Below the pieces are notes generated by a model. The model was not told the DNA's origin, did no database searches, and saw nothing but the letters and a program-made list of their open reading frames with translations. Of a stretch of DNA of 64,000 bases, positions 5,093-56,232 are shown in pieces (the first letter of the stretch is position 1; each line of letters starts with the position of its first letter). The position numbers were made by a program, and so were the translations under genes. This DNA is from a bacterium (GTDB lineage Bacteria > Zhuqueibacterota > Zhuqueibacteria > Residuimicrobiales > Residuimicrobiaceae). The stretch lies in NCBI GenBank assembly GCA_036788095.1, contig DAIQOA010000001.1, forward strand, positions 3,948 through 67,947, written 5' to 3'.

Positions 5093-5749
5093 TTAGCCCT
5101 GGTCGTGCGCCACGATGCGCGCCTCGGTTAAAAAAAACACCTCTTCAGCGATGTTGGTGGCATGGTCAGCCAATCGCTCGAGCTGTCTGGTCAGCACGAT
5201 CAGGTGCGCACACGGCTCAATGTCGTCGGTGCCGGCTTTCATCCGCTCGACGAGAAATTTAAAAATACTTTTGTTCAAACCGTCCACCGCATCGTCCTGA
5301 CGCCGCACTTGCAGCGCTTTTTGTTTGTCCAGCTCGGTGAACGACGCGATGGCTGTCTTTAGCATCACCTGCGCTTGTTTGGCCATGTCGATCACCTGCG
5401 ATTCTTGGACCAGATCGTGGCGGTCCGCGGTCTTGCGTGTACGGTTGACGATGTTGACGGCGATGTCGCCGCATCGTTCCAACTGGGCGCTGATCTTGAG
5501 CGCCGTGATGATGGTGCGCAAGTCGATGGCCACGGGTTGAAACAGAGCGAACAGGTTTTCACACTGAGCCAGAATCAGGTTTTCATAGGCGTCCGTCTGT
5601 TTGTCGCGCTCCTTGACCACGCGGCACAGCTCCACATCGGCTTTTTCCAGCGCTTCAATGGCCATGCCCACCTGACCGTCCACCAGCTCCACCATCTGCT
5701 GCAAGGACGTTTTCAGGCTGTCCATTTCCTGAGTAAAATGATTCTGCAT
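5093..5749 (-). CDS. phoU: phosphate-transport system regulatory protein PhoU
   Basis: 218 aa. Two PhoU repeats ('DVELCRVVKERDKQTDAYENLI', 'IVLTRQLERLADHATNIAEEVFF'). Transcribed divergently from pstS. Confidence 0.9.
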   Translation of the reverse strand: MQNHFTQEMDSLKTSLQQMVELVDGQVGMAIEALEKADVELCRVVKERDKQTDAYENLILAQCENLFALFQPVAIDLRTIITALKISAQLERCGDIAVNIVNRTRKTADRHDLVQESQVIDMAKQAQVMLKTAIASFTELDKQKALQVRRQDDAVDGLNKSIFKFLVERMKAGTDDIEPCAHLIVLTRQLERLADHATNIAEEVFFLTEARIVAHDQG

Positions 5750-5778
5750 ATTCGATGAACCTCAGAGTTGTATATAGT

Positions 5779-5807
5779 AATATACTCATGTTTTTCCGTG
5801 AAATCAA
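5779..5807 (-). promoter_or_regulatory. putative sigma70-type promoter of phoU (-35 TTGATT, 17-nt spacer, -10 TATATT on the minus strand)
   Basis: Plus strand shows aatcaa (5802-5807) and aatata (5779-5784), which on the minus strand read TTGATT-N17-TATATT. The -10 element ends ~30 nt upstream of the phoU ATG at 5749. Confidence 0.4.
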
Positions 5808-5950
5808 CGAAAACGAGGGGGCGATGCCGCAACCGCCGTCGCCACGCCTGGTTTCGGTCGTTGGTTGGTCCAGCCGGGTTAGCTAACGGTTCTAACTCTA
5901 TTTATTTTATGCTGATTACGCCGGCGGCCAATGCGACCGCGCGCGAGTTC

Positions 5951-5979
5951 TTGACTTTGAGGCTAAATATGTGTAATTT
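5951..5979 (+). promoter_or_regulatory. putative sigma70-type promoter of pstSCAB (-35 TTGACT, 17-nt spacer, -10 TAATTT)
   Basis: TTGACT at 5951-5956, a 17-nt spacer, and TAATTT at 5974-5979. It lies 26 nt upstream of the lipoprotein-type start of pstS at 6005. Confidence 0.35.
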
Positions 5980-6004
5980 GCTGCGGCGAATAATGAGGGA
6001 ACCT

Positions 6005-6796
6005 ATGCGCAGAGCCTTTGCAGTATTTGTCTTTGTGATGTCCTTTGCTCTTACATCCGCTTGCGGCAACCGGCGCAGTTCGATCACCGTGGCCGGTTCC
6101 ACTGCTTTTCAGCCCTTTGCGGAAAAGCTGGCTGATCAGTTTATGACCAACCGGCCCACGGCGAACATCATTGTGCAGGGCGGCGGCTCCGCAGTGGGCA
6201 TCCAGTCCACGCTGTCAGGAACAGCCCAGATCGGCATGGCTGATCTGGTCACTCTGCCTGAGGAGGCAAAGGGACTACAGGCCACGGAGGTAGCCCGGGA
6301 CGGCATCGCGGTGGTGGTGCATCCGTCCAACCGCATCAACGACCTGACGATGGACCAGCTGCGCCGAATCTTTAACGGATCGATCCGCAACTGGCGCGAT
6401 CTCGGCGGCGGCTACGGCGTCATCACCGTCGTTTCCCGCGAGGCTGGATCGGGCACGCGCATTTCCTATGAACAGATCGTCGGCGATCTCTTGTTGACCA
6501 AAGAGGCCATTGTTCAGGATTCCAACGGCACAATCAGAGAGACCGTGGCCAATGATCCCAACGCCGTTGGTTATCTGTCGCACGGGTTGCTTAACGAAAA
6601 AATCAAAGCGGTGACCATCGATGGCGTGGCGTGTACCAACGAAGCCATTCAAAGCAATCAGTACGCGCTGGCGCGGCCGATCTTTTTGCTCACCCGTGTC
6701 GAGCCGATGCCCGACACTCAGGCGTTTATCGATTACATTCTCTCCGCAGAAGGTCAGCAAACCATTCAATCCAGCGGTCTCATTCCGGTTAAGTAG
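6005..6796 (+). CDS. pstS: phosphate ABC transporter substrate-binding lipoprotein PstS
   Basis: The ORF is open from 5768. The likely start is MRRAFAVFVFVMSFALTSAC (signal peptide + Cys, 6005). PBP fold motifs 'ITVAGSTAFQPF', 'SREAGSGTR'. An upstream in-frame alternative start is at 5993. Confidence 0.85.
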   Translation: MRRAFAVFVFVMSFALTSACGNRRSSITVAGSTAFQPFAEKLADQFMTNRPTANIIVQGGGSAVGIQSTLSGTAQIGMADLVTLPEEAKGLQATEVARDGIAVVVHPSNRINDLTMDQLRRIFNGSIRNWRDLGGGYGVITVVSREAGSGTRISYEQIVGDLLLTKEAIVQDSNGTIRETVANDPNAVGYLSHGLLNEKIKAVTIDGVACTNEAIQSNQYALARPIFLLTRVEPMPDTQAFIDYILSAEGQQTIQSSGLIPVK

Positions 6797-6804
6797 CGAG
6801 CGCC

Positions 6805-7668
6805 ATGAAACCATATAGCCTGGGAGAAAAAGGCGTTCAGTACATTTTGACCGCCATCGCTTTTTCCGCGTTGTTCGGGCTGTTGCTGATTGCGCTGTTT
6901 ATCCTCAAAGAGGGCCTGCCGTTTCTGACGCAGGTGGGCTTGAAGGATTTCATTTTCGCCCACGACTGGGAACCGCAGGGCGGCAAATTCGGCATCTATC
7001 CCATGATCATCGCCTCTCTGTGGGTGACCTTTGGCGCCATGTTGATCGGCGCGCCGCTGGGCATCGCCTGTGCGGTCTTTCTCACCGAATTCGTTCCCCG
7101 GCCGGTGATGCACACCATCAAGCCCATGATCGAACTCTTGGCCGGCATCCCCTCGGTCATTTACGGTTTTATCGGCGTCATTGTTCTGGCGCCGCTGATC
7201 CGCACGCATCTGGGCGGCCCGGGACTTTCGCTGCTGGCCGCCTCCATCATTCTCGGCATTATGATCCTGCCCACCATCATCAGTATCTCTACGGATGCGA
7301 TCAGCGCAGTGCCCACTTCTTTTCGCGAAGGCTCCCGGGCCTTGGGCGCCACCCGCTGGCAGACGGTTTATATGGTGGTGTTAAAGGCCGCGCGATCCGG
7401 CATCATTTCCGGCGTCATCCTCGGCATGGGAAGGGCCATCGGCGAAACCATGGCGGTCATCATGGTGGCGGGCAACGCGGTCAAGCTGCCGGGCACAGCC
7501 CTGGATTCCGTGCGCACGTTGACGGCCAACATCGCCCTGGAGATGGGTTATGCTGTCGGGATGCACCGCAGTGCACTGTTCGCCACCGGTGTGGTGCTTT
7601 TTATCTTTATCATGGTGTTGAACACCCTGGCCGGCGCTTTTGTCAAACGGGAGATACGCCGGCGATGA
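6805..7668 (+). CDS. pstC: phosphate ABC transporter permease PstC
   Basis: 287 aa, polytopic, with the ABC-permease EAA-like region 'AVPTSFREGSRALGATRWQT'. Confidence 0.9.
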   Translation: MKPYSLGEKGVQYILTAIAFSALFGLLLIALFILKEGLPFLTQVGLKDFIFAHDWEPQGGKFGIYPMIIASLWVTFGAMLIGAPLGIACAVFLTEFVPRPVMHTIKPMIELLAGIPSVIYGFIGVIVLAPLIRTHLGGPGLSLLAASIILGIMILPTIISISTDAISAVPTSFREGSRALGATRWQTVYMVVLKAARSGIISGVILGMGRAIGETMAVIMVAGNAVKLPGTALDSVRTLTANIALEMGYAVGMHRSALFATGVVLFIFIMVLNTLAGAFVKREIRRR

Positions 7669-8504
7669 TGCGGATTCCTGCAAAAGTCAGCCAGGTTGTG
7701 GCGGCGGCCGTGATGGCGCTGGCGACCTTGCTCACCCTGGCGGTGCTGGTCTTTATCGTGGTCTTTATTCTGGAAAAAGGGTTGCCGATTCTGAACCGTA
7801 CTTTTCTTTTCAGCGCCCCCCGTGATATGGGCAAGGCCGGCGGCATTTTCCCCACCATTCTGGCGACCATCATCCTGCCGCTGCTGGCCATTGCGCTAGC
7901 CCTGCCGTTGGGCGTCGGCACAGCCATCTATCTCACCGAATACACCCGGGAGAGCCGTATGACGCGCATTATCCGTTTTGGCAACGATTGTCTGGCCGGC
8001 ATCCCTTCCATTATTTTCGGCCTGTTCGGGTTTCTCTTTTTCGTCACTTTGCTGGAGATGGGCTGGTCGCTGCTGTCCGGCGGGCTGACCCTGGCGTTGA
8101 TGATTTTGCCCACCATCATCCGCACCTCTGAGGAGGCGATCAAATCAGTGCCGACCTCCTATCGCGAGGTCAGTTTTTCGCTGGGCGCCACCCGCTGGCG
8201 CACCATTCAGCGGGTGGTGTTGCCCAACGCTCTACCCGGCATTTTGACCGGCGTGATGTTGGGCATCGGCCGATCCATCGGCGAGACCGCGGCGTTGATC
8301 TTTACCGCCGGCTCTTCGCTGCGTCTGCCGCAATCGCTGTTCGATTCCTCGCGCACCATGTCCGTCCACTTTTACATTCTGGCGCGCGAAGGGCTGTCCA
8401 CGGAAAACGCCTATGGCACAGCGGCGGTTTTGATCCTGTCGGTGCTGTCGGTCAATGCCGTGGCCTACTATCTTATGCACCGTTATATGAAAAAAAATGC
8501 GTAG
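7665..8504 (+). CDS. pstA: phosphate ABC transporter permease PstA
   Basis: ATG at 7665 overlaps the pstC stop (ATGA). Product MMRIPAKVSQ...'SVPTSYREVSFSLGATRWRT'. The upstream part of the long ORF called at 7020..8504 is an alternative frame across pstC, not real coding. Confidence 0.85.
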   Translation: MMRIPAKVSQVVAAAVMALATLLTLAVLVFIVVFILEKGLPILNRTFLFSAPRDMGKAGGIFPTILATIILPLLAIALALPLGVGTAIYLTEYTRESRMTRIIRFGNDCLAGIPSIIFGLFGFLFFVTLLEMGWSLLSGGLTLALMILPTIIRTSEEAIKSVPTSYREVSFSLGATRWRTIQRVVLPNALPGILTGVMLGIGRSIGETAALIFTAGSSLRLPQSLFDSSRTMSVHFYILAREGLSTENAYGTAAVLILSVLSVNAVAYYLMHRYMKKNA

Positions 8505-8549
8505 CCTTTGCTCACAGTCGCAACCGGCGACGGGCCCTTCGACCGCGGG

Positions 8550-9311
8550 ATGATCATGAACGCCAAATTCACTTTATCGCAATTCAGCGCCTATTATGGT
8601 TCGCATCGCGCGCTGCAGCAGATCGATCTGCTTATTCCGCCACGGCGAATCCTTGGCATCATCGGACCTGCCGGCTCGGGCAAGACCACTTTTTTGCGCT
8701 CGCTCAATCGCCTGAACGATCTGACCACCGGCTTTCGCAGGCAGGGCGAGGTGAGGCTGGACGGTGAGGACATCTATGGCGCGGATTTTGATCCCATCGT
8801 TCTGCGCCGGCGCGTGGGCATGCTGTTCGCCCTGCCCATTGCCCTGCCCATGAGCATCTATGAAAACGTGGTCTACGGTCCGCGCATGCAGGGGATCAGC
8901 GGACGACCGCAGCTGGATCAGCTGGTGGAAAGCAGTCTGCGCGCCGCTTTTTTGTGGGAGGAGGTCAAAGACCGTCTAAAGAGTTCCGGTCTACGGCTGT
9001 CCGGCGGCCAGCAGCAGCGCCTCTGTCTCGCGCGCGTGCTGGCTCTCAATCCCGAAGTGATCCTGCTGGATGAGCCGACCTCAGGACTGGATCCCATCTC
9101 TACCGCCAAGATAGAAGACGCCCTGACCTTGCTAAAGGAACAGTATACCATTGTGCTGGTGACCAACAACACCATGCAGGCGGGTCGCGTCGCCGACACC
9201 ACCGCCTTTTTTTTCATGGGCGAACTGATCGAGCAGGATGAGACCAAAAAAATATTCACCAATCCCGCGCAGCAGCGCACCTTGGATTATGTGACCGGCC
9301 GGTTTGGATGA
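8550..9311 (+). CDS. pstB: phosphate import ATP-binding protein PstB (copy 1)
   Basis: Walker A 'GPAGSGKTT', signature 'LSGGQQQRL', Walker B 'ILLDEPTS'. The start is chosen at MIMNAKF (8550); an upstream in-frame TTG at 8508 is less likely. Confidence 0.85.
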
Positions 9312-10078
9312 GGCTCATGGCAACGAAGAACAAAATAGAGATTCAGCGTTTGAACCTTTATTACGGTGCTTTTCACGCCCTGCACGACATCTCGATGGAC
9401 ATTCGCGATCGTCATATCACCGCGCTGATCGGACCCTCCGGCTGCGGCAAATCAACCTTGGTGCGCAGCCTCAACCGGATGAACGATCTGATCAGCGGCG
9501 CCCGGGTGACCGGCTCTGTGCGCGTGGACGGCGAAGACATCTATGCGGCCAAGGCGGATGTCGAAAAGGTGCGCAAAAAAGTGGGCATGGTTTTTCAACG
9601 GCCCAACCCTTTTCCGCTGTCCATTTTCGACAACGTGGCCTACGGCCTGCGCGTGGCAGGCGTGAAAAATAAAGCCGCGCTCCAGGATAAAGTGGAGCAG
9701 AGCTTGAGGGCTGCGTGGCTATGGGACAGCCTGAAGGACCAGCTGCATTCATCGGCAGTGACCTTGCCCCTGGATCAGCAACAGCGTCTGTGCATCGCGC
9801 GGCTGTTGATCATCGAGCCCGAAGTGATCCTGATGGACGAGCCCTGCTCCGCGCTGGATCCCATCGCCACCGCCAAGATCGAGGAACTGATTCTGGAGTT
9901 GAAGAAAAATTACTGCATCGTCATCGTCACCCACAACATGCAGCAGGCGGCGCGGGTTTCGGATTTTTCCGGGTACATGCTCCTCGGCGACTTGATCGAG
10001 TATGACGATACGAAAAAAATATTTACCCATCCCGCCGATAAACGCACCGAAGAGTACATCACCGGCCGCTACGGCTGA
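9308..10078 (+). CDS. pstB: phosphate import ATP-binding protein PstB (copy 2, tandem paralog)
   Basis: Walker A 'GPSGCGKST', '[11 protein letters not shown]', 'ILMDEPCS'. Overlaps the stop of copy 1 by 4 nt, in the B. subtilis pstBA/pstBB style. Confidence 0.85.
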
Positions 10079-10129
10079 GGCCGTGGATCCGGCACGAGTT
10101 ATTTGTACCGCTTCTCGGCCGGGAGCCGC

Positions 10130-10990
10130 TCACTCGAGAGGGGTGAGCAGGACGTTGTCTTTTATTTCGACCAGCCCCCATTTGCGGTAATCCCCGTTGT
10201 TCATCACCGGAATCGCCCTGCCGATTTGATAGATCTCTTGTCGATGATAATGGCCATGCAGCACCAGATCCGGATGAAAGCGGTCGAGGAGGGCGACCAG
10301 CTCTCGGCGGTTGATCAATCTGGTTGCGGCGGCGAACAGCCGGCCTTCCCGACGGCTCACCACCGAAGCGGGCAGCAGATGGTGGTGCAGCACAACGATT
10401 TTAAACCGGCTGGCCAACGCTTCGTGCGCCAGGATGCGTTCGGCGCTGCCGGGATCCACATAGCCGTTGGAGCAGAAAACATTGCGGCTGATGCGCGGCA
10501 GGCAGCGATTGGAATCCAACACAATCAGAGCAACCCGTTCGTCTAAAAGTTTGATAAAGGGATAGGGATCAGTTTCCCGGCCGTTCAGCGTCAGGATGGA
10601 GCGAAAGGCATTGCGAAAGCTGTGGATGAAGAAGGAGACATCCTTCTCATAATGCGGCTGATCATAGGCGTGTATTTTCATGGCCGTGCGCGGGACCTGG
10701 CGCCATTTGCGGTAAAAGTCGCCGCCGGCGTGAAAATCTTTAAAGAAAAAATAATAGAGATCGTGATTGCCGGGCAGAACGGTCAAACGGTCGGAGGTGG
10801 AAAAACCGCTGCGGCGCAGCAACGCGGCCAGGGCGCGGAATTCTTCCGCGCGGCCGCTCTGACTCAGATCCCCGCTGAGGATCAGATGATCCGGATCGGC
10901 GCGCTGGATCTGGATCAGTCGGCGTTCCACCCAAGCGTCCCGTTCGGCGGAAAAGCCGTAATGCAGGTCAGACAGATGGGCGATCTTCAT
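10130..10990 (-). CDS. calcineurin-like metallophosphoesterase
   Basis: 286 aa. 'HLSDLHYG', 'ILSGDLS', 'GNHD', 'VVLHHHL' and 'LHGHYH' are the metal-ligand motifs of the MPP superfamily. Convergent with pstB2. Confidence 0.75.
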   Translation of the reverse strand: MKIAHLSDLHYGFSAERDAWVERRLIQIQRADPDHLILSGDLSQSGRAEEFRALAALLRRSGFSTSDRLTVLPGNHDLYYFFFKDFHAGGDFYRKWRQVPRTAMKIHAYDQPHYEKDVSFFIHSFRNAFRSILTLNGRETDPYPFIKLLDERVALIVLDSNRCLPRISRNVFCSNGYVDPGSAERILAHEALASRFKIVVLHHHLLPASVVSRREGRLFAAATRLINRRELVALLDRFHPDLVLHGHYHRQEIYQIGRAIPVMNNGDYRKWGLVEIKDNVLLTPLE

Positions 10991-11009
10991 CGGGCTGGAT
11001 TCGACCAGG

Positions 11010-11426
11010 TTAACCGAAACAGAGGATTTTGATCACATAGATGAGAATCCCGGCCATTGTGAAAAAAAGCACATCCTGCAGACGATCCCAGAACATGAGG
11101 ATCTTTAAATCCACTTCCTTCCATTGCTCCCACTCCCGGATGACGCCGAGGAGAAAGCCGCTCAATCCGGCGGTAATCAATGAAGGCCAGAGAAAAACCG
11201 GCAGCAAAATCACCGCGCTGTGCACCATATGCAGCGCCTGATCCAGCACGTTGATCCAACCGCTGTGTTTGGGACGCCATGGATGCCGGTAGGCCAAGAT
11301 GTTGAGCACTTTATGGTATTCGGGATCCGGCAGCTTTTTCAGCTGTTTTTCGACCCGGTCCGCCACTTTTTCCAAATCCGGCGGCGCCGCGCCATAGAAA
11401 ATGCGATAGTGCTCGGGTTTCTGCAT
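11010..11426 (-). CDS. hypothetical small membrane protein (2 predicted TM helices), probably co-transcribed with the metallophosphoesterase
   Basis: Start chosen at MQKPEHY (11426) with an AGGTGA RBS 5 nt upstream. Hydrophobic stretches 'AVILLPVFLWPSLITAGLSGFLLGVI' and 'VLFFTMAGILIYVIKILCF'. Its stop is 20 nt before the MPE start. Confidence 0.5.
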   Translation of the reverse strand: MQKPEHYRIFYGAAPPDLEKVADRVEKQLKKLPDPEYHKVLNILAYRHPWRPKHSGWINVLDQALHMVHSAVILLPVFLWPSLITAGLSGFLLGVIREWEQWKEVDLKILMFWDRLQDVLFFTMAGILIYVIKILCFG

Positions 11427-11585
11427 GGTCTCACCTCTTCGGACTATATGAGCAGACTCAAAGCAGGGCGCCAGGATGCCGTTCAGCCACCCTGTACAAT
11501 TTAAAAACCGCGGCATGATTTCAAAGCATTTTCTTTCACGACCCTTTGGCCTGTCCCCGCGGGCTCAGAGTTTTGGACTTTTCTC

Positions 11586-11614
11586 TTGATTTTTGCCGGC
11601 CGAATACCTAATTT
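11586..11614 (+). promoter_or_regulatory. putative promoter (-35 TTGATT, 17 nt, -10 TAATTT)
   Basis: TTGATT at 11586-11591, a 17-nt spacer, and TAATTT at 11609-11614. It lies ~120 nt upstream of the 11734 ORF. Confidence 0.4.
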
Positions 11615-11733
11615 GATTTGCATTTTTTTACCCCGCAGAGCCGGGACCATGAGACGCATGGCAGCGGACCAGGGTACTTACGGCCGTTACCTTTTAGGCT
11701 CTGCCCGGGGCGAGCGAGGGAGAAGGCAAGGTC

Positions 11734-12135
11734 ATGAAAGCGAAGAAATTTTTCTGGATCGGCACGGTGCTGTTTCTCTTGGCCCTGGCCGTTTTTGTTT
11801 GGTGGCGATATTATTTCGTGTTCGGCGAAGGGGTTAAGGCCGGCAATTTAAATTTTCTGGTGAAAAAAGGCTATGTGTTCAAGACCTGGGAAGGCCGTCT
11901 CATTCAAACCGGCTTTAAAACCCCCAAACCGGGTTCTATGCAGAGCAATGAATTTGAATTCAGCGTGGTGAACGACAGCCTGGCGCACGAGCTGGAAAGA
12001 GCCAACGGCAAATTCGTCGAAGTGCGCTATAAAGAATACCTGCACGCGTTGCCTTGGCGGGGCATGAGCAATTACACCGTCACCGCCATCCTGCGCATCG
12101 AGGATGAGCCGGGCAACTCGGTCTTGCCGTTCTAG
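11734..12135 (+). CDS. hypothetical protein with N-terminal membrane anchor
   Basis: 133 aa. 'FFWIGTVLFLLALAVFVWW' is a TM/signal anchor. GAGGGAGAAGG RBS. Bracketed by its own promoter and terminator. Confidence 0.5.
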   Translation: MKAKKFFWIGTVLFLLALAVFVWWRYYFVFGEGVKAGNLNFLVKKGYVFKTWEGRLIQTGFKTPKPGSMQSNEFEFSVVNDSLAHELERANGKFVEVRYKEYLHALPWRGMSNYTVTAILRIEDEPGNSVLPF

Positions 12136-12299
12136 CGGCAGAGCGGGCTGCTTTTGCTGCAGCCACAGGCGCCCAGAGGGGCGCTTTGTAATTGTAAATC
12201 AAAAACATAACAGCGGGTCTTAACTGCGGACAGCATTCTGATGCACCCGGCAGCGGGCTATTTGCAAGCGAGACCGGTCTGCATCCACCCCACTTAACA

Positions 12300-12330
12300 A
12301 CCGGCACGATGAAAAGGCGCCGGTTTTTTT
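12300..12330 (+). terminator. rho-independent terminator downstream of the 11734 gene
   Basis: CCGGCacgatgaaaaggcGCCGG hairpin followed by TTTTTTT. Confidence 0.5.
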
Positions 12331-12413
12331 ATCGCGATGTCCCCGCTGGCGGTAACCGCGAAAAATCCCACTGCCGCCTTTCTCCTCATGCGGTCGTTTT
12401 CTGTTTTCGAGAG

Positions 12414-12442
12414 TTGACATTTAGAAAAAAATGTGGTAATTT
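12414..12442 (+). promoter_or_regulatory. putative promoter (-35 TTGACA, 17 nt, -10 TAATTT)
   Basis: TTGACA at 12414-12419, a 17-nt spacer, and TAATTT at 12437-12442, upstream of the 12507 gene. Confidence 0.4.
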
Positions 12443-12506
12443 AATCTTCATTTTTCAGGCGGCATAAAAGGACTCTGCCTTGTTACGGTGCATCCGACCA
12501 CGCTTC

Positions 12507-14753
12507 ATGTTGCTCCTCCTTTTGGGTTTGATCAGTTCCCTCATGGCCCAGCCCATTCGCGACAGCCGGCCGCGCACATCCGCGCGTCTGCACAAAACCG
12601 CCATCGATGATTATTGGCATTTTCATAACGCCGGAAATCTCGGATTGACCGTCACCAACTATGGCGTGATCGGCGAAGGCTATAATAATCCGGATCAGCC
12701 CTCCTGCATGTACAAGCTGCATGCCGATAACATGCGTTATCAGATCGAACATATGTCCTTCGGCGGTCTCTGGGTCGGCGGCCGCAGCGAGGCGGACGGC
12801 GCGGTACACGTCTCCACCGCCATTGTGGACGGCGTGTTTGAAGCCGGCGAAGAGGGCTTTGAGTTTACCAACAGCGAAGCGGCCGGCGATACGATACAGA
12901 TTCGCTCGACCATCGTCACCTCTCCTTATTTTTCTCCGCAAGCGGTATCGCATCAGGACTTTGTCGCCACCTTTACGGATCTGAACACCCGCGTGCCCGG
13001 AAGCGACTTTGAAATACCCAACCACACTCCGCTCGGCCTCAGCATACGCCTCGAGTCCTATGCCTGGAATTACAGTTACACCGATGCGTTTGTCATCCTC
13101 AACTATACCATCACCAACGTTTCACGGTATACCATTGAGGACGTCTTTGCCGGCCTCTGGGCGGATGCCGCGGTCGGCAATATGAATTACACCAGCATCT
13201 ATACGCCCGGCGGCGGCTGGTCGTGGTACGACAACATGAACGGATTTGATCAGGGCTACAAACTGGCTTATCAATTTGATGCCGATGGCGACGACGGATT
13301 CGCGCAGAGCTATTTCGGTCTGCGTTATCTGGGCTCCTCCCGCCGCCGTGATTCCGTTCAAGTCCATTATGACCAGTGGCGCTGGTCCGCCAGCGCGGCC
13401 ATGGATTTTCCAGAGTATGTTATGCCGATCAACGATGAGGGCCGGTACGAGGTTCTACGCGGCCGGCATACAGGAAGGTATTACAACGAAGTCACAGACG
13501 GCGGCATTCCAACCGATCCGGCCAGCCGGGGCAGCTGGATGCTGGTGCTCAGCGCCGGCCCGCTGGCTACGCTGGCGCCGGGAGGTTCCACCACCGTGAC
13601 CTTTGCGATTGTCTGCGGCCTGTGGGCTACGCAGGAGTCGAACGACACCCCCGGCCGCCGCGCCAACCTTCGACTCAATTCCGATTGGGCGCAGATCGCC
13701 TATAACGGCGAAGACGTGGACGGCGACGGTAAACTCGATCCCAATGAGGACCAGAACAACAACGGAATCCTCGACGGCCAGGAGGATGTTTACCGTTCTG
13801 ATTTTGATCTGAACAGAAACAGCCGCTGGGATGCCGGCGAGCCGGTTTTCGGTGACGGCGATGGCCATCTCGATATTGAAGAAGACGTGCACCACAATGC
13901 CATCAAGGGCATTCAACCGGGCAACGGAGTGATCGACCGCTTTATTCTTCCCAGCCCGCCGCCTTCTCCGAACCTTCTCGCTGTTCCCGGCGAAGGCCGG
14001 GTAACGCTCTATTGGGATAAGGTGTCGGAGGAGTACGAAGACCCCATCACGCGCGAAAAAGACTTTGAGGGATACCGCATCTACAGCTCTCCCAAAACCG
14101 CTTCCTCCGCAGAGGAACGCACGCTGCTGGCGGAATTTGACCGGATCAACGACCTGGGATATGACACCGGCTTTGCCGCGGTTGCGGTCGATACGGTCAT
14201 CGACGGCCGGCGCTATTTTTACCGCTTCACCAACACCGAGCTGCTCTCCGGCTGGCCGGGTCAGTACTGGTTCAGCGTCACCGCTTTTGACCGCGGCAAT
14301 CCGACCAACAATCTGCCCAGCCTGGAAAGCTCTGTGCTGGAGAACAAGATTTATGCGGTCATCGGATCTCCCGCCAGACCGGCCGGCAGCGCGCTTCGGG
14401 TCGGCGTCTTTCCCAATCCCTACCGCGGTCAGGCCCTGTGGGACGGCGACAGCGACCGCGACCAGATGCTCTGGTTTTTCAATTTGCCGGCCGAAGCCGA
14501 GGTGCGCATCTACACCCTGGCCGGCGATCTGATCGATGAGTTCCGCCATCATGGCAGCAGTTATCGCGGTGAAGACGTCAACCTGATGCAACAAAAGATC
14601 GGCGGCAGCAACACCGTACTGCCGGGCGGACTGCACGCCTGGGATTTAATCTCCTCCTATGATCAGGCGATCGCCACCGGATTGTATTTTTTCAGCGTCA
14701 AGGACGTGGAAACCGGGGAAATTCAGACGGGAAAATTCGTCATCATCAAATAA
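12507..14753 (+). CDS. secreted T9SS cargo protein with thrombospondin-type-3-like Ca-binding Asp repeats, an Fn3-like module and a type-A T9SS C-terminal sorting domain
   Basis: Signal peptide MLLLLLGLISSLMAQP (open from 12480). D-rich repeats 'DVDGDGKLDPNEDQNNNGILDGQED...GDGDGHLDIEED'. The C-terminus 'VFPNPYRG...EVRIYTLAGDLI...GLYFFSVKDVETGEIQTGKFVIIK' resembles the Por secretion tail. Confidence 0.7.
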   Translation: MLLLLLGLISSLMAQPIRDSRPRTSARLHKTAIDDYWHFHNAGNLGLTVTNYGVIGEGYNNPDQPSCMYKLHADNMRYQIEHMSFGGLWVGGRSEADGAVHVSTAIVDGVFEAGEEGFEFTNSEAAGDTIQIRSTIVTSPYFSPQAVSHQDFVATFTDLNTRVPGSDFEIPNHTPLGLSIRLESYAWNYSYTDAFVILNYTITNVSRYTIEDVFAGLWADAAVGNMNYTSIYTPGGGWSWYDNMNGFDQGYKLAYQFDADGDDGFAQSYFGLRYLGSSRRRDSVQVHYDQWRWSASAAMDFPEYVMPINDEGRYEVLRGRHTGRYYNEVTDGGIPTDPASRGSWMLVLSAGPLATLAPGGSTTVTFAIVCGLWATQESNDTPGRRANLRLNSDWAQIAYNGEDVDGDGKLDPNEDQNNNGILDGQEDVYRSDFDLNRNSRWDAGEPVFGDGDGHLDIEEDVHHNAIKGIQPGNGVIDRFILPSPPPSPNLLAVPGEGRVTLYWDKVSEEYEDPITREKDFEGYRIYSSPKTASSAEERTLLAEFDRINDLGYDTGFAAVAVDTVIDGRRYFYRFTNTELLSGWPGQYWFSVTAFDRGNPTNNLPSLESSVLENKIYAVIGSPARPAGSALRVGVFPNPYRGQALWDGDSDRDQMLWFFNLPAEAEVRIYTLAGDLIDEFRHHGSSYRGEDVNLMQQKIGGSNTVLPGGLHAWDLISSYDQAIATGLYFFSVKDVETGEIQTGKFVIIK

Positions 14754-14807
14754 ACGCATCACTGGTCGAGGCCGAGGGGTAAAAGACCTTCAGAAAGGAG
14801 CTGCACT

Positions 14808-17441
14808 TTGAAAAAAGCGATACTGGTTTTGTTGGTACTGGCTGTATGGAGTTCCGCAGGGGCTCAGGTCACTTTAATCCGCGACATTCAATACACCACC
14901 GCCCCCACCGGGGATTCGCCGCTTAAGGATCAGATTGTGACCATCAGCGGTGTGGTCACCGGCGAAATCTATGCTTTTAAAAACAGCTACTATTATGTGC
15001 AGGACGCCAACGCCCCCTGGTCCGGCATCAAGGTGTACGACAAAACCCATTTCGCCGCCCAGGGCGATCGCGTCACCCTGACGGGAAAGGTGGCCGAGTA
15101 CAAGGGCGTCACCGAGATCACCACGGTAACCGCTTTTACCGTAGATTCCACCGGCAGCAACTGGATTCAGCCCATGGCCGTCACCACCGGCGAGATCGCC
15201 ACCACCGGCGCCAATGCGGAGGCCTATGAGGGCTGCCTCGTTCGCGTAGGTCCCGCCACCATCACCAATCCGAACCTCGGCTATGGCGAGTGGCAGATCG
15301 ATGACGGCTCCGGGCCCTGCCGCGTCGATGACGAGACCAAGTATTATTTCCTTCAGGCCCAGTATGGCTCTGTGCAGTCGATCACCGGCATCCTCGACTT
15401 TGCCAACAACGACACCAAGATCGAGCCGCGCCTGGCCAACGACGTGATCGAAGAAGGACCGTACACCCGCATCCAGCGCATTCAACAGGTGCGTTACAGC
15501 GATCTGCTGAAAACGCCGACGCAGAACGCCGCGGATAAGAGCTATATGGACGGCGACACCATGACCGTCAGAGGCATCGTTACCATGCCGACCGGATTGT
15601 GCTACGCCGGCGCAGGCATTAAATTCACCTTTGCCGCCCCTGAAGGTGGCCCGTGGTCCGGTCTGCTCTCCTATCATGCCGATTCAACGGCCTATGGATC
15701 CCTGTATGAAGGCGATGAAATTGTCATGACCGGTTATATCTCAGAGTACACCACCGCCCCCTCCAACATGACCGAATTTTTCATCACCAGTCCCATCGAT
15801 ATTATCAATTTCGGCCAACCCCTGCCCAAAGTCGACTCGATCAAAACAGGCGATCTGCGCTGGCCCACCACTGCTGAGCAGTGGGGCACCTGTATGGTCA
15901 AAGTAGGCAACGCCAAAGTCACCTATCTGACTCCGCAGTACGAATTGTTCGAGATCGATGACGGCAGCGGCGGGGTTCTGGTCGACGATGAATCCGACAG
16001 CATCCGCAATTATCCGGATCCGCCTCTGAAATCGACTTTTGAATCGATGCAGGGTTGGGTCTATCATCATTACGGGTATTACACCGATTCCACCGCTTAC
16101 AAACTGGAGCCGCTCTATCGCACGCAGATGGTGCTGGGCGCCGCTCCGTTGACGGTTAAAAACACCAAGCGCAATCTCGCTGGCGCCATGCCGACGCAAG
16201 CCGTCAGCGTTACCACCACCTTGGATCCAGCGGCCAATGTCGGCTCCGCTAAACTGTTTTACAAAGTCAACGAAGGCGCTTATGCTGAATTGCCCATGAC
16301 GATGAACAACGGCGTCTATGGAGCCGAGATCCCGGCTCAAGCGCTTGGCAGCGTTGTTAACTATTATATCGAGGCCGTGGATAAGGGTGGGCAAAAAACC
16401 TATGATCCGCCTGATCAGACGGTGGCGAATTACACCTATCTGGTGCTGGACGGCAATCCCACGCTGGCGCAGGTGCAAAAAACCTACTGGCCTTCGGGAG
16501 ATAGCCCGTTCCAGAATTTCACCGTGACGGTGGAAGGCGTAGTGACGGCGGACTCGCTGTTCTATGCCAAATACGGCGCGTATCCCATTCAAGACGCGGC
16601 CGGCGCGTGGAACGGCCTGTTCATTCTGGGCAAAGTGCCCAACTCGCTGCATCGCGGCGACCGAGTCCGCGTGACCGGCAGAGTGGAGGACCACAACGCC
16701 GCCTACCTGTATAAATGGGAGGGCAACACCCAGATCCTCGCCGACACCACCATCGTCCTGGCCAGAGCGCAGGAACTGCCCGCGGTGGTGACGGTGACCA
16801 CCAATGATCTGAAAAGCAAGAGCGCTTTGGCCGAGCAGTACGAGGGCGTGCTGGTGCAGGTGAGAAACGCCACCCTGACGGCGGTCAATTCCTATGATGT
16901 GACGATCAACGACGGCAGCGGCGAATGCCTGCTGGACGGGGATGCGTTCATCGGCCGTGATCAGGATGCCAATCCCAATTTCTACATCAATCGAACCGCC
17001 AAAGTGCTGATCGTCGCCGGCGATACGGTCAAGATCGGCGAACAGATCAAAATGGCCCAGGGTGTTTTTCTCTACAGCTTTGGCAGCCATAAAATAGAAA
17101 TCCGCGACCTCAGCGATATCGGCACCACCACCGGCGTGCTCAACGCGGTCGTTGCGCAACCGCTCCGCTTTAGCCTGGAGCAGAATTATCCCAATCCGTT
17201 CAATCCGGAGACGCGGCTGTACTTTCAGATTCCTGAAACGCAAAACGTGCAGTTGGTTGTTTATAATATCCGCGGCCAGATCGTGCGCAATCTGGTGGAC
17301 AACCGCCTCGATGCCGGCGATCATATCGTCAATTGGGACGGCCGTGACAACCGCGGCAATCCGGCGCCCACCGGCGTCTACATCTATCGCATCAAAGCCG
17401 GCGATTACATGGCTGCGCGCAAGATGACGCTGGTGAAATAA
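14808..17441 (+). CDS. secreted T9SS cargo protein made of three tandem OB-fold-like modules (of the kind found at the N-termini of ExeM/NucH/Xds-type extracellular nucleases) plus an Ig-like domain and T9SS CTD; no catalytic domain recognised
   Basis: Signal peptide MKKAILVLLVLAVWSSAGAQ. Three modules begin with I(R/Q)DIQ/Y...GD(S)P...VT(V/I)(S/R)G(V/I)VT... and contain 'EGCLVRV'/'EGVLVQV' and '(W/F)EIDDGSG' strands. The canonical CTD is 'YPNPFNPETRLYF...VVYNIRGQIVRNL...GVYIYRIKAGDYMAARKMTLVK'. Confidence 0.7.
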   Translation: MKKAILVLLVLAVWSSAGAQVTLIRDIQYTTAPTGDSPLKDQIVTISGVVTGEIYAFKNSYYYVQDANAPWSGIKVYDKTHFAAQGDRVTLTGKVAEYKGVTEITTVTAFTVDSTGSNWIQPMAVTTGEIATTGANAEAYEGCLVRVGPATITNPNLGYGEWQIDDGSGPCRVDDETKYYFLQAQYGSVQSITGILDFANNDTKIEPRLANDVIEEGPYTRIQRIQQVRYSDLLKTPTQNAADKSYMDGDTMTVRGIVTMPTGLCYAGAGIKFTFAAPEGGPWSGLLSYHADSTAYGSLYEGDEIVMTGYISEYTTAPSNMTEFFITSPIDIINFGQPLPKVDSIKTGDLRWPTTAEQWGTCMVKVGNAKVTYLTPQYELFEIDDGSGGVLVDDESDSIRNYPDPPLKSTFESMQGWVYHHYGYYTDSTAYKLEPLYRTQMVLGAAPLTVKNTKRNLAGAMPTQAVSVTTTLDPAANVGSAKLFYKVNEGAYAELPMTMNNGVYGAEIPAQALGSVVNYYIEAVDKGGQKTYDPPDQTVANYTYLVLDGNPTLAQVQKTYWPSGDSPFQNFTVTVEGVVTADSLFYAKYGAYPIQDAAGAWNGLFILGKVPNSLHRGDRVRVTGRVEDHNAAYLYKWEGNTQILADTTIVLARAQELPAVVTVTTNDLKSKSALAEQYEGVLVQVRNATLTAVNSYDVTINDGSGECLLDGDAFIGRDQDANPNFYINRTAKVLIVAGDTVKIGEQIKMAQGVFLYSFGSHKIEIRDLSDIGTTTGVLNAVVAQPLRFSLEQNYPNPFNPETRLYFQIPETQNVQLVVYNIRGQIVRNLVDNRLDAGDHIVNWDGRDNRGNPAPTGVYIYRIKAGDYMAARKMTLVK

Positions 17442-17477
17442 GGCTGTTTTTTTTCGCCGAGGTTTTGTAAACGGCGC

Positions 17478-17522
17478 AGGCGGGCTGAGGCGCGTTGGCT
17501 CAGGTTCAACGCCCTCAGCCCG
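17478..17522. other. strong imperfect hairpin (GGGCTGAGGCGCGTTG...CAACGCCCTCAGCCC) 37 nt downstream of the 14808 gene; possible terminator or processing site
   Basis: 15/16-bp inverted repeat with no clear U-tract on either strand. A T8 run lies immediately 5' of it (17446-17453). Confidence 0.35.
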
Positions 17523-17650
17523 CACAGGCGCTCACGCAGCAAAAAATGGCCGCTCGCGACGATTCACTCGTTCGGTTGAACGGTGGAACGCGGCGACCCT
17601 GAGGAAGGTTGGATCAAAGCAACGCTGTTTCATTTTTTATTTGCGTGTAA

Positions 17651-19156: not shown

Positions 19157-19160
19157 GCGA

Positions 19161-21884: not shown

Positions 21885-21889
21885 TCACG

Positions 21890-22912
21890 ATGGCAGGAAG
21901 GAATCGATATAGCCTGAACACGGCGCTGCGTTACGTATTTTTGTTGACCGCCGTGCTGTTTTTAAGCCGGCCGGCGGACGGGCAAGGGCTTTTACCCCGG
22001 CTGGGTGAGCAACGCGCCGGCACCGCCTCCCTGACGTTTCTCAAGATCGGCGTGGGCGCTCGAGCGGTCTCCATGGCCGGCGCCTATGTGGCCATGGCCA
22101 ACGACGCCTCCGCAACCTATTGGAATCCCGCCGGCCTGGTGCAGATCGGCCGTAACGAACTGGTCGTTTCGCACTCCGACTGGCTGGTGGATGTTGATTA
22201 CGAATATCTGGGCTATGTGCATCAAGTGACGCGGAATTTAAGCCTGGGCGCTTTTGCAGGCTATCTCCATTTTGCCGATATGCCGGTGACCACCGAGTAT
22301 CATCCTTACGGCAACGGCGATTATTTTTCTTATCACGACTGGGTGGCCGGGCTGAGCGCTTCGCTCAAAATGACAGACCGGTTTTCCTTCGGCGTGACCG
22401 CTAAATACGCGGCCGAGGAACTGGCCGGTCTGCGCATGGGCGGCCTGCTGCTGGACATGGGCACCTATTACTGGACCGGCTACAAAACCCTGCGCCTGGC
22501 CGCTGCCCTGCGCAATTTCGGCAACGACATGCGGCCGGCTGGAACCTATCTGCGCACAAAAACCAGCGGCGCTACGGTCACCTCCTATCAGGCGTTCTCG
22601 CCGCCGACGCTCTTTACTCTGGGCGCGGCTATGGACGTGTATCAGTCGGACGCCCATCGGGTCACCGCGACGGTGCAGATGAATCATCCCATGGACGATC
22701 AGGAAAATTTTCTCATGGGCGGCGAGTACCGGTTCCGCTCGCTCTTTGCCTTTCGCGGCGGCTATCGCGCCAGCTCGGGCGAGAATCACTGGACCTTTGG
22801 CGCCGGCGCCAAGTTCATCCTCAAGGGAGCGCATCTCAAGATCGATTATGCCTATGCGGATTACACCCATTTGACCATGACACAGCAATTCACCTTTGGA
22901 TTTGAATTTTAA
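21890..22912 (+). CDS. PorV/PorQ-family (T9SS-associated, FadL-like) outer-membrane β-barrel protein, co-transcribed with the TBDR
   Basis: Signal peptide, then the family hallmark 'GARAVSMAGAYVAMANDASATYWNPAGL'. 340 aa with alternating amphipathic β-strands and a terminal 'FTFGFEF'. Starts 6 nt after the TBDR stop. Confidence 0.6.
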   Translation: MAGRNRYSLNTALRYVFLLTAVLFLSRPADGQGLLPRLGEQRAGTASLTFLKIGVGARAVSMAGAYVAMANDASATYWNPAGLVQIGRNELVVSHSDWLVDVDYEYLGYVHQVTRNLSLGAFAGYLHFADMPVTTEYHPYGNGDYFSYHDWVAGLSASLKMTDRFSFGVTAKYAAEELAGLRMGGLLLDMGTYYWTGYKTLRLAAALRNFGNDMRPAGTYLRTKTSGATVTSYQAFSPPTLFTLGAAMDVYQSDAHRVTATVQMNHPMDDQENFLMGGEYRFRSLFAFRGGYRASSGENHWTFGAGAKFILKGAHLKIDYAYADYTHLTMTQQFTFGFEF

Positions 22913-31728: not shown

Positions 31729-31753
31729 GGGAATGATAGCGGCGCCTTGACGT

Positions 31754-56181: not shown

Positions 56182-56232
56182 ACTTTGTGCGGAATTTACT
56201 GCACTGGTTTTCTACACAATCCTGAAAGAAGC

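Follow-up and report, generated by a model that had tools for sequence, protein, structure and literature searches.

A conserved six-gene block of T9SS cargo and TonB-dependent transporter genes beside a pst/phoU locus, with a possible role in nucleic acid capture

The locus raises the question of what a secreted protein built of nuclease-type OB folds, but carrying no nuclease domain, does beside a set of phosphate-uptake genes. In a sequence-only reading, the whole of 5093-17441 had been suggested to be a Pho-regulon island, co-induced under Pi limitation and scavenging extracellular DNA or organic phosphate. Positions refer to the window, i.e., the whole stretch of 64,000 nucleotides that was analysed.

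Genes of the region

The features were as follows:
5093-5749, minus strand: phoU (TIGR02135, 185 bits, cutoff 130)
5750-6004: phoU/pstS intergenic region with a CTAAC repeat and two promoter-like sites
5807-5779, minus strand: promoter-like TTGATT-17-TATATT of phoU
5883-5896: CTAAC-N4-CTAAC repeat in the phoU/pstS spacer
5951-5979: promoter-like TTGACT-17-TAATTT of pstS
6005-6796, plus strand: pstS, lipoprotein (TIGR02136, 205 bits; PF12849, 1.5e-33)
6805-7668, plus strand: pstC (TIGR02138, 289 bits)
7665-8504, plus strand: pstA (TIGR00974, 289 bits)
8508-9311, plus strand: pstB1, likely start ATG 8550 (TIGR00972, 339 bits, slightly below the cutoff of 343)
9308-10078, plus strand: pstB2 (TIGR00972, 379 bits)
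10130-10990, minus strand: calcineurin-like metallophosphoesterase (PF00149, 1e-16)
11010-11426, minus strand: 138-aa membrane protein, 5' of the phosphoesterase
11734-12135, plus strand: 133-aa N-terminally anchored protein
12414-12442, plus strand: promoter-like TTGACA-17-TAATTT 5' of gene A
12480-14753, plus strand: gene A, T9SS cargo of 757 aa (unannotated family)
14808-17441, plus strand: gene B, 877-aa OB-repeat T9SS cargo, starting with a signal peptide
17480-17523, plus strand: strong GC-rich hairpin in the 209-bp B/C spacer
17651-19156, plus strand: gene C, 501-aa lipoprotein, lipobox LIMGC
19161-21884, plus strand: gene D, TonB-dependent transporter (CarboxypepD_reg, Plug and OMP_b-brl_3 barrel)
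21890-22912, plus strand: gene E, PorV/PorQ-family outer-membrane barrel (NF033709, 188 bits, cutoff 90)
22912-24150, plus strand: gene F, 412-aa NHL-repeat lipoprotein, lipobox LTTLGC
24268-26982, plus strand: second CarboxypepD_reg and Plug transporter
46939-47811, plus strand: stand-alone LTD protein with a T9SS CTD (PF00932, 2e-17), 23 kb from the block

The divergence of phoU from pstS and the tandem pstB genes, both described before, were borne out by profile matches. All five functions of the canonical pstSCAB-phoU operon were present with equivalog-level scores, but in that operon phoU is not divergent from pstS and pstB is not duplicated in tandem. The true start of pstS was placed at ATG 6005, giving the lipoprotein signal MRRAFAVFVFVMSFALTSAC with the lipobox LTSAC (read from the sequence), and pstC and pstA overlap in an ATGA. 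The small membrane protein preceding the phosphoesterase was also found (no family match in profile searches), as was the stand-alone anchored protein with a promoter and terminator of its own: the 133-aa gene has a promoter-like TTGATT-17-TAATTT at 11586 and a terminator-like hairpin with a T-run at 12127-12146. The phosphoesterase begins with MKIAHLSDLHYG, the catalytic motif standing right at the start; its lack of a signal peptide argues against an extracellular scavenger, and the enzyme is probably cytoplasmic.

Conservation and neighbours of the six-gene block

Genes A-F form a colinear, operon-like block of six genes (12480-24150). The unit end previously set at 17441 splits this block, and the downstream partners of the OB-repeat protein, namely a lipoprotein, a TonB-dependent transporter, a PorV-family barrel and an NHL lipoprotein, had been missed. 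The block was colinear in 20 fetched loci and in further annotated contexts, and whole wherever the flanks of a related locus were long enough, at B identities from 95% to ~30%. Its carriers were KSB1, Calditrichia, Fidelibacterota, Ignavibacteria and Rhodothermales, and it thereby occurs across several poorly studied bacterial phyla. The second transporter is often, not always, near the block (L087-L093, L092, L101, L112, L161).

The B-C gap was short in most loci (42-160 bp). In the window, the hairpin-bearing part of the spacer (17442-17560) had an MFE of -55.8 kcal/mol (z = -3.5), and the hairpin may serve as an intra-operon attenuator or stabiliser. It also sets A-B apart from C-F, as would be expected if A and B were a surface adhesin or matrix protein for extracellular DNA, mineral or cell surfaces and the transporter genes were functionally unrelated neighbours; A and B, as large acidic T9SS cargo rich in repeats, Ca-type ones included, also have features typical of adhesins. 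Against such a role stand the strict A-B/C-D-E-F colinearity, kept down to about 30% identity in several phyla, and the mostly short B-C gaps, and we regard it as very unlikely.

Several neighbours are related to nucleic acids or phosphate. A separate EEP nuclease with a T9SS CTD lies directly upstream of A in three independent lineages (L084, L085 and L086, in L085 with an LTD), which agrees with the earlier proposal that DNA binding and hydrolysis are split across secreted proteins. An RNase_T-like gene is upstream of the block in L084 (exported lipoprotein) and L164, L096 has NPP upstream and GDPD downstream, L092 has SSB, uridine kinase and thymidine kinase genes downstream, and in L162 a purple-acid-phosphatase-like protein secreted by the T9SS is encoded 7 kb upstream. 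The phyla that carry the block also have OB modules joined to EEP in one protein (L107), and in L085 and L112 LTDs are fused to EEP nucleases or OB-repeat proteins beside it. The lamin-tail-domain protein noted elsewhere in the window was confirmed by its profile match and additionally bears a CTD; no nuclease is encoded anywhere in the window. About half of the sampled lineages (L003, L097, L118, L005, L161, L163) had no nucleic-acid or phosphate neighbour.

Genes of pst/phoU lay within 10 kb of the block only in the two closest clades (B identity 95% and about 76%), arranged differently in each, and in no lineage with B at 61% identity or less; the adjacency is lineage-specific. In the 76% clade, pstSCAB-phoU has the usual order, with phoU 3' of a single pstB. 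Between pst and A, this clade has a phosphate-selective-type porin (faint match) and an OlsF-like acyltransferase gene of the phosphorus-free lipid synthesis type; in other bacteria OlsF is under Pho control (PMC12971839). The Pho-regulon proposal can draw on the pst/phoU adjacency in both clades, on these intervening genes, on the CTTAAC-N5-CTTAAC repeats (11-bp periodicity) in the porin-pst promoter of that clade, on the L096 and L162 neighbours, and on the exact TTGACW-N17-TAATTT, which occurs only twice in the window, 5' of pstS and of A. The -35 and -10 of the A promoter are also kept 5' of A in the 76% clade. However, a full -35/-10 is unlike typical PhoB-dependent promoters, and when two mismatches were tolerated, unrelated genes too had this promoter type at their 5' side. 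The search suggested earlier for a shared PhoB/PhoP-type motif gave no repeat common to the other promoters: CTAAC-N4-CTAAC, whose real position is 5883-5896 and not ~5890-5912, occurs once in the window (0.05 expected) and is confined to the pst/phoU spacer, with no tandem repeat 5' of A, the phosphoesterase operon or the 133-aa gene. In the 95% relative (L087), the pentamers are kept with N5 spacing. Among related loci, that relative alone also has the phosphoesterase and the two small proteins, and the phosphoesterase, as noted, lacks a signal peptide. Of the proposed island, the pst adjacency stood in the two closest clades, while a conserved unit and a shared Pho-box did not, and co-induction of the whole region as one unit is considered quite unlikely.

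Domains of the two cargo proteins

Both predicted T9SS cargo genes, one with Ca-binding repeats, were present, and each product ends in a CTD. The layout of B was as follows:
Residues 21-218 (14868-15461): module M1
Residues 219-448 (15462-16151): module M2
Residues 449-548 (16152-16451): Ig/CBM56-like insert
Residues 549-778 (16452-17141): module M3
About 17175-17438: CTD, type A (TIGR04183, 36 bits, cutoff 23)

The description of B as three OB modules and a CTD was upheld, whereas the insert had been overlooked; its resemblance to CBM56 is a weak carbohydrate-type signal. The modules share 26-34% pairwise identity (hhalign probability 99.4-100%), and by sequence comparison each of the three, ~200 aa long and repeated in tandem, is made of two nucleic-acid-type OB folds. 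As had been proposed, the modules are of the ExeM/NucH kind and no nuclease domain accompanies them in the protein: profile searches found no EEP or other catalytic domain. B matched NF033681 (E=1.8e-20, covering only model positions 1-120 of 546) and the OB3/OB4 region of Streptococcus pyogenes SpnA (PDB 9sf8; E=2e-8). PF01336 matched 12 of the 22 family members and DUF5689 half of them (11/22; best 3.5e-10), with B itself under the DUF5689 gathering threshold (20.7 vs 28.6 bits). At the level of sequence profiles, homology links the modules both to DUF5689 and to the N-terminal, substrate-binding part of the ExeM/NucH/SpnA nucleases; the HMM check advised before returned nuclease-associated OB families. 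DNA binding by SpnA requires the OB domains (PMC13601614), and the OB region of ExeM is essential for activity (PMC6085458). All three modules of B are strongly acidic (pI 4.0-5.4 family-wide), which speaks against DNA binding by charge attraction alone; cations would have to bridge protein and DNA.

Gene A had no Pfam match and no PDB sequence match, and all 1163 members of its family are hypothetical proteins. Its sequence shows conserved acidic repeats of the DxDGDG Ca type and a domain resembling FN3, and it ends in a divergent T9SS CTD, which hhalign matched to the CTD of B with 90% probability. The AF2 model was poor (pLDDT 63), and in this low-confidence model the N-terminal domain resembled the beta-supersandwich domains found at the N-termini of GH116, GH94, GH63 and GH15 (E 2e-7).

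This match, together with the acidic OB modules, would suit a Sus-like importer of a non-nucleic-acid ligand (a glycan or other anionic polymer), in which the OB, Ig/CBM56 and supersandwich domains were T9SS-displayed oligosaccharide binders. Glycan-degrading genes do occur near the block (GH115 in L003, sulfatases in L084, fucosidase/apiosidase in the P0028 context). Yet no glycoside hydrolase or lyase was found within the block, none is a regular neighbour of it, the domain matched by the poor A model is non-catalytic in glycosidases, and the OB modules matched nuclease-associated and nucleic-acid OB families but no carbohydrate-binding family, whether by sequence or fold. A Sus-like role is judged unlikely. 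SusC/SusD loci resemble the block in combining a TonB-dependent transporter, CarboxypepD_reg at its N-terminus, with surface binding proteins and lipoproteins. The block differs from them in having no SusD homologue and no glycoside hydrolases, and in that its binding proteins are T9SS cargo; the SusC/RagA model matched only the N-terminal part of D (60 bits vs the 368 cutoff).

Possible function and known systems

The reading that we tentatively prefer, at somewhat less than an even chance, is that A-F encode a conserved, T9SS-dependent machinery of the outer membrane that captures extracellular nucleic acid and imports it, a counterpart of the DUF5689/TonB-transporter systems by which Bacteroidota take up DNA. 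The T9SS would export A and B to the surface, where they would be retained by A-LPS or, by analogy, by uncleaved CTDs docked to the dedicated barrel E. B would bind DNA or RNA polymers, which would be fragmented by nucleases encoded elsewhere (in other genomes, the EEP+CTD protein directly upstream of the block). D would import the oligonucleotides, assisted by lipoproteins C and F (a lid or accessory subunits), and periplasmic and cytoplasmic enzymes would release phosphate and nucleosides. The position beside pstSCAB1B2/phoU, although lineage-specific, is consistent with DNA serving as a source of phosphorus.

Among known systems, the block comes nearest to the DUF5689 module that serves DNA utilisation as DdbC/DdbD and transformation in Riemerella. 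DdbC/DdbD belong to the ddbABCDEF DNA-utilisation loci of Bacteroides thetaiotaomicron (10.1101/2025.03.18.642099), and natural transformation of Riemerella anatipestifer requires the homologous pair RA0C_RS04915/RA0C_RS04920 (PMC8459023). Like the block, both pairs place a DUF5689-type OB-fold surface protein beside a CarboxypepD_reg-type TonB-dependent transporter gene, the likeness of D to DdbC being one of shared domain architecture; secreted nucleases are often co-encoded, and the organisation is PUL-like. DdbD, however, is a single-module SPII lipoprotein, whereas B has the module in tandem triplicate and carries an Ig-like insert as well as a T9SS CTD. Here another lipoprotein (C, with FN3/Ig-like N-terminal domains and an unassigned alpha/beta C-terminal domain) abuts the transporter gene. 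Three further components are part of the block: the PorV/PorQ-family barrel, the NHL lipoprotein and the unannotated 750-aa cargo A. Nucleases lie outside the block and are missing from the window. The hosts differ as well, being Bacteroidales/Flavobacteriales for DdbC/DdbD and KSB1, Calditrichia, Fidelibacterota and Ignavibacteria for the block.

Given this module- and architecture-level homology to the Riemerella pair (PMC8459023), the block could instead import intact DNA for natural transformation, not nutrition, and SSB is directly downstream in L092 and L160. SSB next to LptD may be inherited background synteny, however, and ComEC, DprA or a ComEA-like HhH protein was not seen near any block. 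The recurrent partners (EEP nucleases, NPP, GDPD, phosphate uptake, nucleoside kinases) point to catabolism, and a role in transformation appears highly improbable.

For nucleic acid capture by B, the other relevant comparison is with the ExeM/NucH/Xds/SpnA EEP nucleases, whose N-terminal OB-fold pair is homologous to each B module; LTD accessory domains occur in B relatives and neighbouring nucleases. B differs in having neither EEP nor LTD, in its triplicated modules and in being anchored via a T9SS CTD, not a C-terminal transmembrane or LPXTG anchor. As to retention, the gene for barrel E stands in one block with those for the CTD-bearing A and B. This recalls the T9SS attachment pairs PorQ-PorZ and PorV-PorU, in which the second partner docks to the first (PMC10202324), and the analogy suggests stable CTD-barrel docking of A/B on E. 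Assignment of E to PorV, PorQ or PorV2 proper was rejected, all equivalog models scoring far under their cutoffs; by profile scores E is a distinct PorV/PorQ-family paralogue, separate from those pairs and embedded in a transporter operon.

Genes of the pst/phoU region and the adjoining block

Genes were assigned with family models and by inspection of the sequence, and the gene list of the sequence-only reading was confirmed throughout. The features are as follows (window positions; A–F are the six genes of the block).

5093–5749, minus: phoU, divergent from pstS (TIGR02135, 185 bits)
From the true start ATG at 6005, plus: pstS, lipoprotein signal (TIGR02136, 205.5 bits; cutoff 206.6)
plus: pstC (TIGR02138, 289 bits)
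7665–8504, plus: pstA, ATGA overlap onto pstC (TIGR00974, 289 bits)
plus: pstB1 (TIGR00972, 339 bits; cutoff 343)
plus: pstB2 (TIGR00972, 379 bits)
10130–10990, minus: calcineurin-like phosphoesterase (PF00149, 1e-16)
11010–11426, minus: 138-aa membrane protein, beyond pstB2 and paired with the phosphoesterase gene
11734–12135, plus: 133-aa N-terminally anchored protein, flanked by a promoter-like site and a terminator-like hairpin of its own
12480–14753, plus: A, cargo with Ca-type repeats, ~750 aa, no Pfam matches
14808–17441, plus: B, OB-repeat T9SS cargo
C: lipoprotein, ~500 aa, no Pfam matches
D: TonB-dependent transporter (CarboxypepD_reg, Plug and barrel), ~915 aa
E: PorV/PorQ family, ~335 aa
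F: lipoprotein with NHL repeats, ~410 aa

PstS, PstC, PstA, PstB and PhoU were each matched by their family model, with scores that reach or nearly reach the equivalog thresholds. The region had been proposed to end at 17441; this boundary cuts the block, and the unit is better set at 12480–24150. The N-terminus of the phosphoesterase is MKIAHLSDLHYG and a signal peptide is absent, so the protein is not an extracellular enzyme. A role in defence was also considered and rejected, as the PADLOC and NCBIfam anti-phage phosphoesterase matches were far below threshold.

The genes of the block are closely packed, with gaps of 54 bp (A/B), 4 bp (C/D) and 5 bp (D/E) and an overlap of 1 bp (E/F). The exception is the 209-bp B–C spacer (17442–17650), which contains a strong hairpin rich in GC (GGGCTGAGGCG...CGCCCTCAGCCC; MFE −55.8 kcal/mol, z = −3.5, no T-run) and is much shorter in other loci (42–160 bp). 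The hairpin may attenuate or stabilise the transcript and so set the ratio of A and B to C–F.

The 1163 members of the A family are all annotated as hypothetical, and none carries a Pfam domain. In A, acidic repeats of the DxDGDG type are conserved, and the C-terminus is a divergent T9SS C-terminal sorting domain (CTD), which aligned with that of B at an hhalign probability of 90%. The invariant His/Asp positions (H91, H158-Q-D160, H182, D229, D267/D269/D271, H690 and H719) could form a metal site. The structure model of A was poor (AF2 pLDDT 63). Foldseek matched it to beta-supersandwich domains of glycosidases, which at this low confidence counts only as a hint; the model allowed no catalytic assignment, the invariant residues notwithstanding. 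An importer of glycans or another ligand, to which this hint would point, is an unlikely reading of the block, and the modules of B tie instead to nucleic-acid-binding OB folds (see below).

Neither A nor C matched a PDB sequence in profile searches, and Pfam scans of the C family returned FN3/Ig hints only. C (lipobox LIMGC) and F (lipobox LTTLGC) are lipoproteins. D was matched by Plug (PF07715, 2.8e-10), PF14905 (3.8e-13) and, partially, TIGR01785 (98 bits). E belongs to the PorV/PorQ family (NF033709, 188 bits; cutoff 90) and scored below the specific equivalogs PorQ (78 against 220), PorV2 (66 against 325) and PorV (63 against 250).

OB modules of protein B

Self-comparison resolved B into three homologous modules (residues 21–218, 219–448 and 549–778), 26–34% identical to one another (hhalign probabilities 99.4–100%), with an insert of ~100 residues (449–548) between the second and third. 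Each module is modelled as a pair of five-stranded barrels (AlphaFold, mean pLDDT 83). The protein carries an SPI-type signal and ends in a T9SS type A sorting domain (TIGR04183, 36 bits; cutoff 23).

The NCBIfam ExeM/NucH nuclease model NF033681 matched B in two stretches (E=1.8e-20). The match is restricted to the first 120 of 546 model positions and thus covers the OB region, not the catalytic endonuclease/exonuclease/phosphatase (EEP) domain. There was no NF033681 match past position 120 and none to PF03372 or PF19580, so B lacks an EEP catalytic domain and falls outside the ExeM/NucH nuclease family. The profile of the B family also matched the OB3/OB4 region of Streptococcus pyogenes SpnA (PDB 9sf8/9sf9, E=2e-8). 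Among 22 family members, 12 were matched by PF01336 (nucleic-acid OB fold) and 11 by DUF5689 (PF18942) at E<1e-3, the best at 3.5e-10; B of the window itself scored 20.7 bits against PF18942 (gathering score 28.6; E=4e-4) over model positions 3–216 of 217. The description of B as nuclease-tethering-type OB modules lacking a catalytic domain was therefore correct, and the modules themselves did not prove to be carbohydrate-binding.

The SpnA OB domains have been reported as necessary for DNA binding and cleavage (PMC13601614), and the ExeM region corresponding to the OB modules is essential for activity (PMC6085458). DNA binding by B is predicted from fold-level similarity to nucleic-acid OB folds, and the strongly acidic character of the modules (pI 4.0–5.4 across the family) calls for caution in this respect.

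The B family comprised 705 relatives of ~880 aa, assigned, where named, to KSB1, Calditrichaeota/Caldithrix, and Fidelibacterota or Neomarinimicrobiota. The OB module is a widely shuffled unit across these phyla. In L110 (9890–12526) and L132 (9944–12088), proteins combine OB modules of this kind with CARDB and a GATase1-like GIFT/ThuA/DUF4350 domain; in L107 they are fused to a dockerin and an EEP domain, and in L113 and L152 they lie inside longer DUF5689 proteins (L numbers denote the related loci that were fetched). A relationship between C and the GIFT/ThuA-like domain was rejected (hhalign probability 1%). One full-length homologue of B from Neomarinimicrobiota (P0097, 1285 aa) has an extra cytochrome c domain (PF13442), and multihaem cytochrome genes were found near the block in L003 and L086.

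Conservation and neighbourhood of the block

In an earlier scan of reference genomes with a full-length alignment, only ~5 of 80 loci were informative and the generic T9SS CTD motif QNYPNPFN dominated. Because this motif swamped the search, the scan was redone on metagenome contigs with a CTD-less alignment, and the tblastn hits of every window protein in all the fetched loci were then counted.

The block was intact in 20 loci, including one from Ignavibacteria (L005), with B identities from 95% down to ~30%. In every context examined, B lay within the same colinear A-B-C-D-E-F block; it is improbable that B is an adhesin with unrelated neighbour genes. Full-length B homologues without the block were all on truncated contigs, and a partial locus from Rhodothermales (L007) had A and B before the contig ended. 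In L086, a second B-like gene (19669–22688; 877 aa, faint DUF5689 match and FlgD_ig) and a C-like gene directly follow the first block, so this cluster may be partly tandem-duplicated.

Linkage of pst/phoU to the block, at a distance of 10 kb or less, was confined to the clade of the window and one sister clade. In L087, the 95% relative, their arrangement is the same as in the window. In the sister clade (L001, L004 and L090; ~76% B identity), a porin with a faint phosphate-porin match, pstS, pstC, pstA, a single pstB and phoU all lie on the opposite strand, and a 580-aa two-domain acyltransferase (PF19576 and PF13444), OlsF-like by domain architecture, directly precedes A, divergent from the porin-pst operon. 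OlsF produces ornithine lipids, which lack phosphorus, and in other bacteria it is under Pho control (PMC12971839). In lineages with B identities of 61% or lower, pst genes were absent within 10 kb of the block.

Three candidate shared regulatory signals were tried and rejected. CTAAC-N4-CTAAC (5883–5896) occurs once in the 64-kb window (0.05 expected by chance). With the spacing relaxed to N3–7 there was still a single occurrence in the 64 kb, in the pst/phoU spacer, and L087 keeps the repeat with altered spacing. Tandem repeats of the TTAAC type were absent between window positions 4600 and 25000. The exact pattern TTGACW-N17-TAATTT was found in the window upstream of pstS and of A only; with up to two mismatches it gave eight matches (2.4 expected) and preceded unrelated genes too. 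It thus looks like the organism's general promoter form, probably of the housekeeping type with TAATTT rather than TATAAT as the −10 element. The promoter-like TTGAC(A/T)-17-TAA(T/C)TT sites are:

5951–5979: upstream of pstS
11586–11614: upstream of the gene for the 133-aa protein
12414–12442: upstream of A
27101–27129: upstream of the gene at ~27120

The sister clade has conserved CTTAAC-N5-CTTAAC-type repeats with 11-bp periodicity in the porin-pstSCAB-phoU promoter region (~5200–5330 in L001, L004 and L090), which resemble cyanobacterial-type Pho boxes; nothing like them was seen upstream of A. No direct repeat of the Pho-box type shared by the promoters was found, which is a weak negative for this phylum.

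The sequence-only reading had interpreted the region as a co-regulated Pho-regulon island. The adjacency of pst in two clades speaks for it. No repeat shared by the promoters was found, and the phosphoesterase and both small proteins recurred, among related loci, only in L087; an island of this kind is quite unlikely. The underlying observation was confirmed and its interpretation partly supported.

Where pst is not linked to the block, enzymes that act on nucleic acids or phosphodiesters recur beside it. Immediately upstream of A lies an EEP nuclease that has a T9SS CTD (L084 and L086) or a protein combining EEP, lamin-tail domain (LTD) and CTD (L085). An RNase_T-like gene is located upstream of the block in L084 (with a lipoprotein signal) and L164. 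In L096 the block lies between a type I nucleotide pyrophosphatase/phosphodiesterase (upstream) and a GDPD (downstream), and in L092 the genes downstream of it include SSB, uridine kinase and thymidine kinase. L162 has a secreted purple-acid-phosphatase-like protein 7 kb upstream, and L112 a further LTD+DUF5689+OB cargo upstream. About half of the sampled lineages (L003, L097, L118, L005, L161 and L163) had no such neighbour. The proposed division of labour, in which binding and hydrolysis fall to separate secreted proteins, gains support from L084, L085 and L086, where separate nucleases with EEP and CTD are encoded. In the window, a tblastn search found no EEP homologue; its queries were the EEP proteins from L084 and L086 and the L085 protein with EEP and LTD. 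The LTD protein at 46939–47811 is real and has LTD and CTD.

Proposed function and comparison with known systems

We tentatively propose that A–F form a surface apparatus for the capture and import of extracellular nucleic acid. A and B would be secreted by the T9SS and kept at the surface, either on A-LPS or through uncleaved CTDs docked to barrel E; PorZ on PorQ and PorU on PorV offer precedents for such docking (PMC10202324). The six OB folds of B would bind extracellular nucleic acid, possibly with divalent cations taking part, since the modules are acidic and A has Ca-type repeats. Secreted nucleases would cut the nucleic acid into fragments, D would import these with lipoproteins C and F, and downstream hydrolysis would yield nucleosides and phosphate, the latter for PstSCAB. 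What the block is made of, how far it is conserved, its domains and its export signals are established here; the ligand, the docking of CTDs to E, the parts played by A, C and F and a tie to phosphorus nutrition are inferred.

The closest described system is the pair of a DUF5689 protein and a TonB-dependent transporter. DdbD and DdbC of B. thetaiotaomicron come from a six-gene locus with three nucleases, required for exogenous DNA depletion (bioRxiv 10.1101/2025.03.18.642099). The R. anatipestifer pair, RA0C_RS04920 (DUF5689+DUF5017) with RA0C_RS04915 (CarboxypepD_reg outer-membrane protein), is indispensable for natural transformation (PMC8459023); an importer dedicated to transformation is nevertheless an improbable reading of the block. 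The block and these pairs have in common an OB module, probably of the DUF5689 type in B, and a transporter with CarboxypepD_reg, and secreted nucleases are often associated with both; between D and DdbC or RA0C_RS04915, the likeness established is in the CarboxypepD_reg, Plug and barrel architecture only.

The block differs from Ddb in several respects. Its OB protein has the module in three copies and is a T9SS export, whereas DdbD is a lipid-anchored SPII lipoprotein adjoining its transporter; in the block the transporter lies one gene further on and is adjoined by a different lipoprotein (C). The block has three further constant members, the PorV/PorQ-family barrel, the lipoprotein with NHL repeats and the unannotated A, and nucleases lie outside it: secreted ones adjoin it in L084, L085 and L086 and none was found in the window. 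The hosts belong to other phyla of the FCB group. Nor is the block a SusC/SusD PUL, since SusD is absent and, of the SusC model (TIGR04056, 60 bits against 368), only the N-terminal part finds a match in D; C had no Pfam or PDB sequence match. A literature search found no paper describing the six-gene block.

The nucleic-acid capture proposed here might extend to a general outer-membrane receptor/importer of KSB1, Calditrichota, Fidelibacterota (Marinimicrobia), Ignavibacteria and relatives, in which the T9SS-secreted six-OB-fold binder and A, on a dedicated PorV-like barrel, would serve as capture subunits of a TonB-dependent transporter with two novel lipoprotein partners. This wider reading is rather doubtful. 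If true, the architecture would be new, the DUF5689/TonB principle of DNA uptake, itself a recent proposal, would reach across the FCB superphylum, and the T9SS would be tied directly to nutrient import, which would suggest that TonB-dependent import machines can incorporate T9SS cargo and PorV-like barrels. In sediments and anoxic waters, which are rich in the uncultivated KSB1, Calditrichia, Marinimicrobia and Ignavibacteria, extracellular DNA makes up a major pool of organic phosphorus and nitrogen. A conserved and easily recognised six-gene marker would let DNA capture and import be scored in metagenomes and would assign functions to two large unannotated families (A and C). For the window, a better-delimited unit and a testable ligand take the place of the island hypothesis.

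Several other genes were recorded around the block. LptD_2 lies downstream of it both in the window (29116–31917, minus) and in L160 (20443–22691, with SSB between), which points to an old synteny backbone. This weakens a functional reading of SSB beside the block, and SSB adjoining LptD may be background synteny. Directly after the block, the window encodes a second CarboxypepD_reg and Plug transporter (24268–26982), a homologue of which was found near the block in many, not all, loci, sometimes on the other side or strand (L092, L101, L112 and L161). Further on (56185–58824), the window encodes a large T9SS cargo with a Peptidase_C39_2-like cysteine protease domain, CARDB, Big_13 and an FlgD_ig-type CTD.
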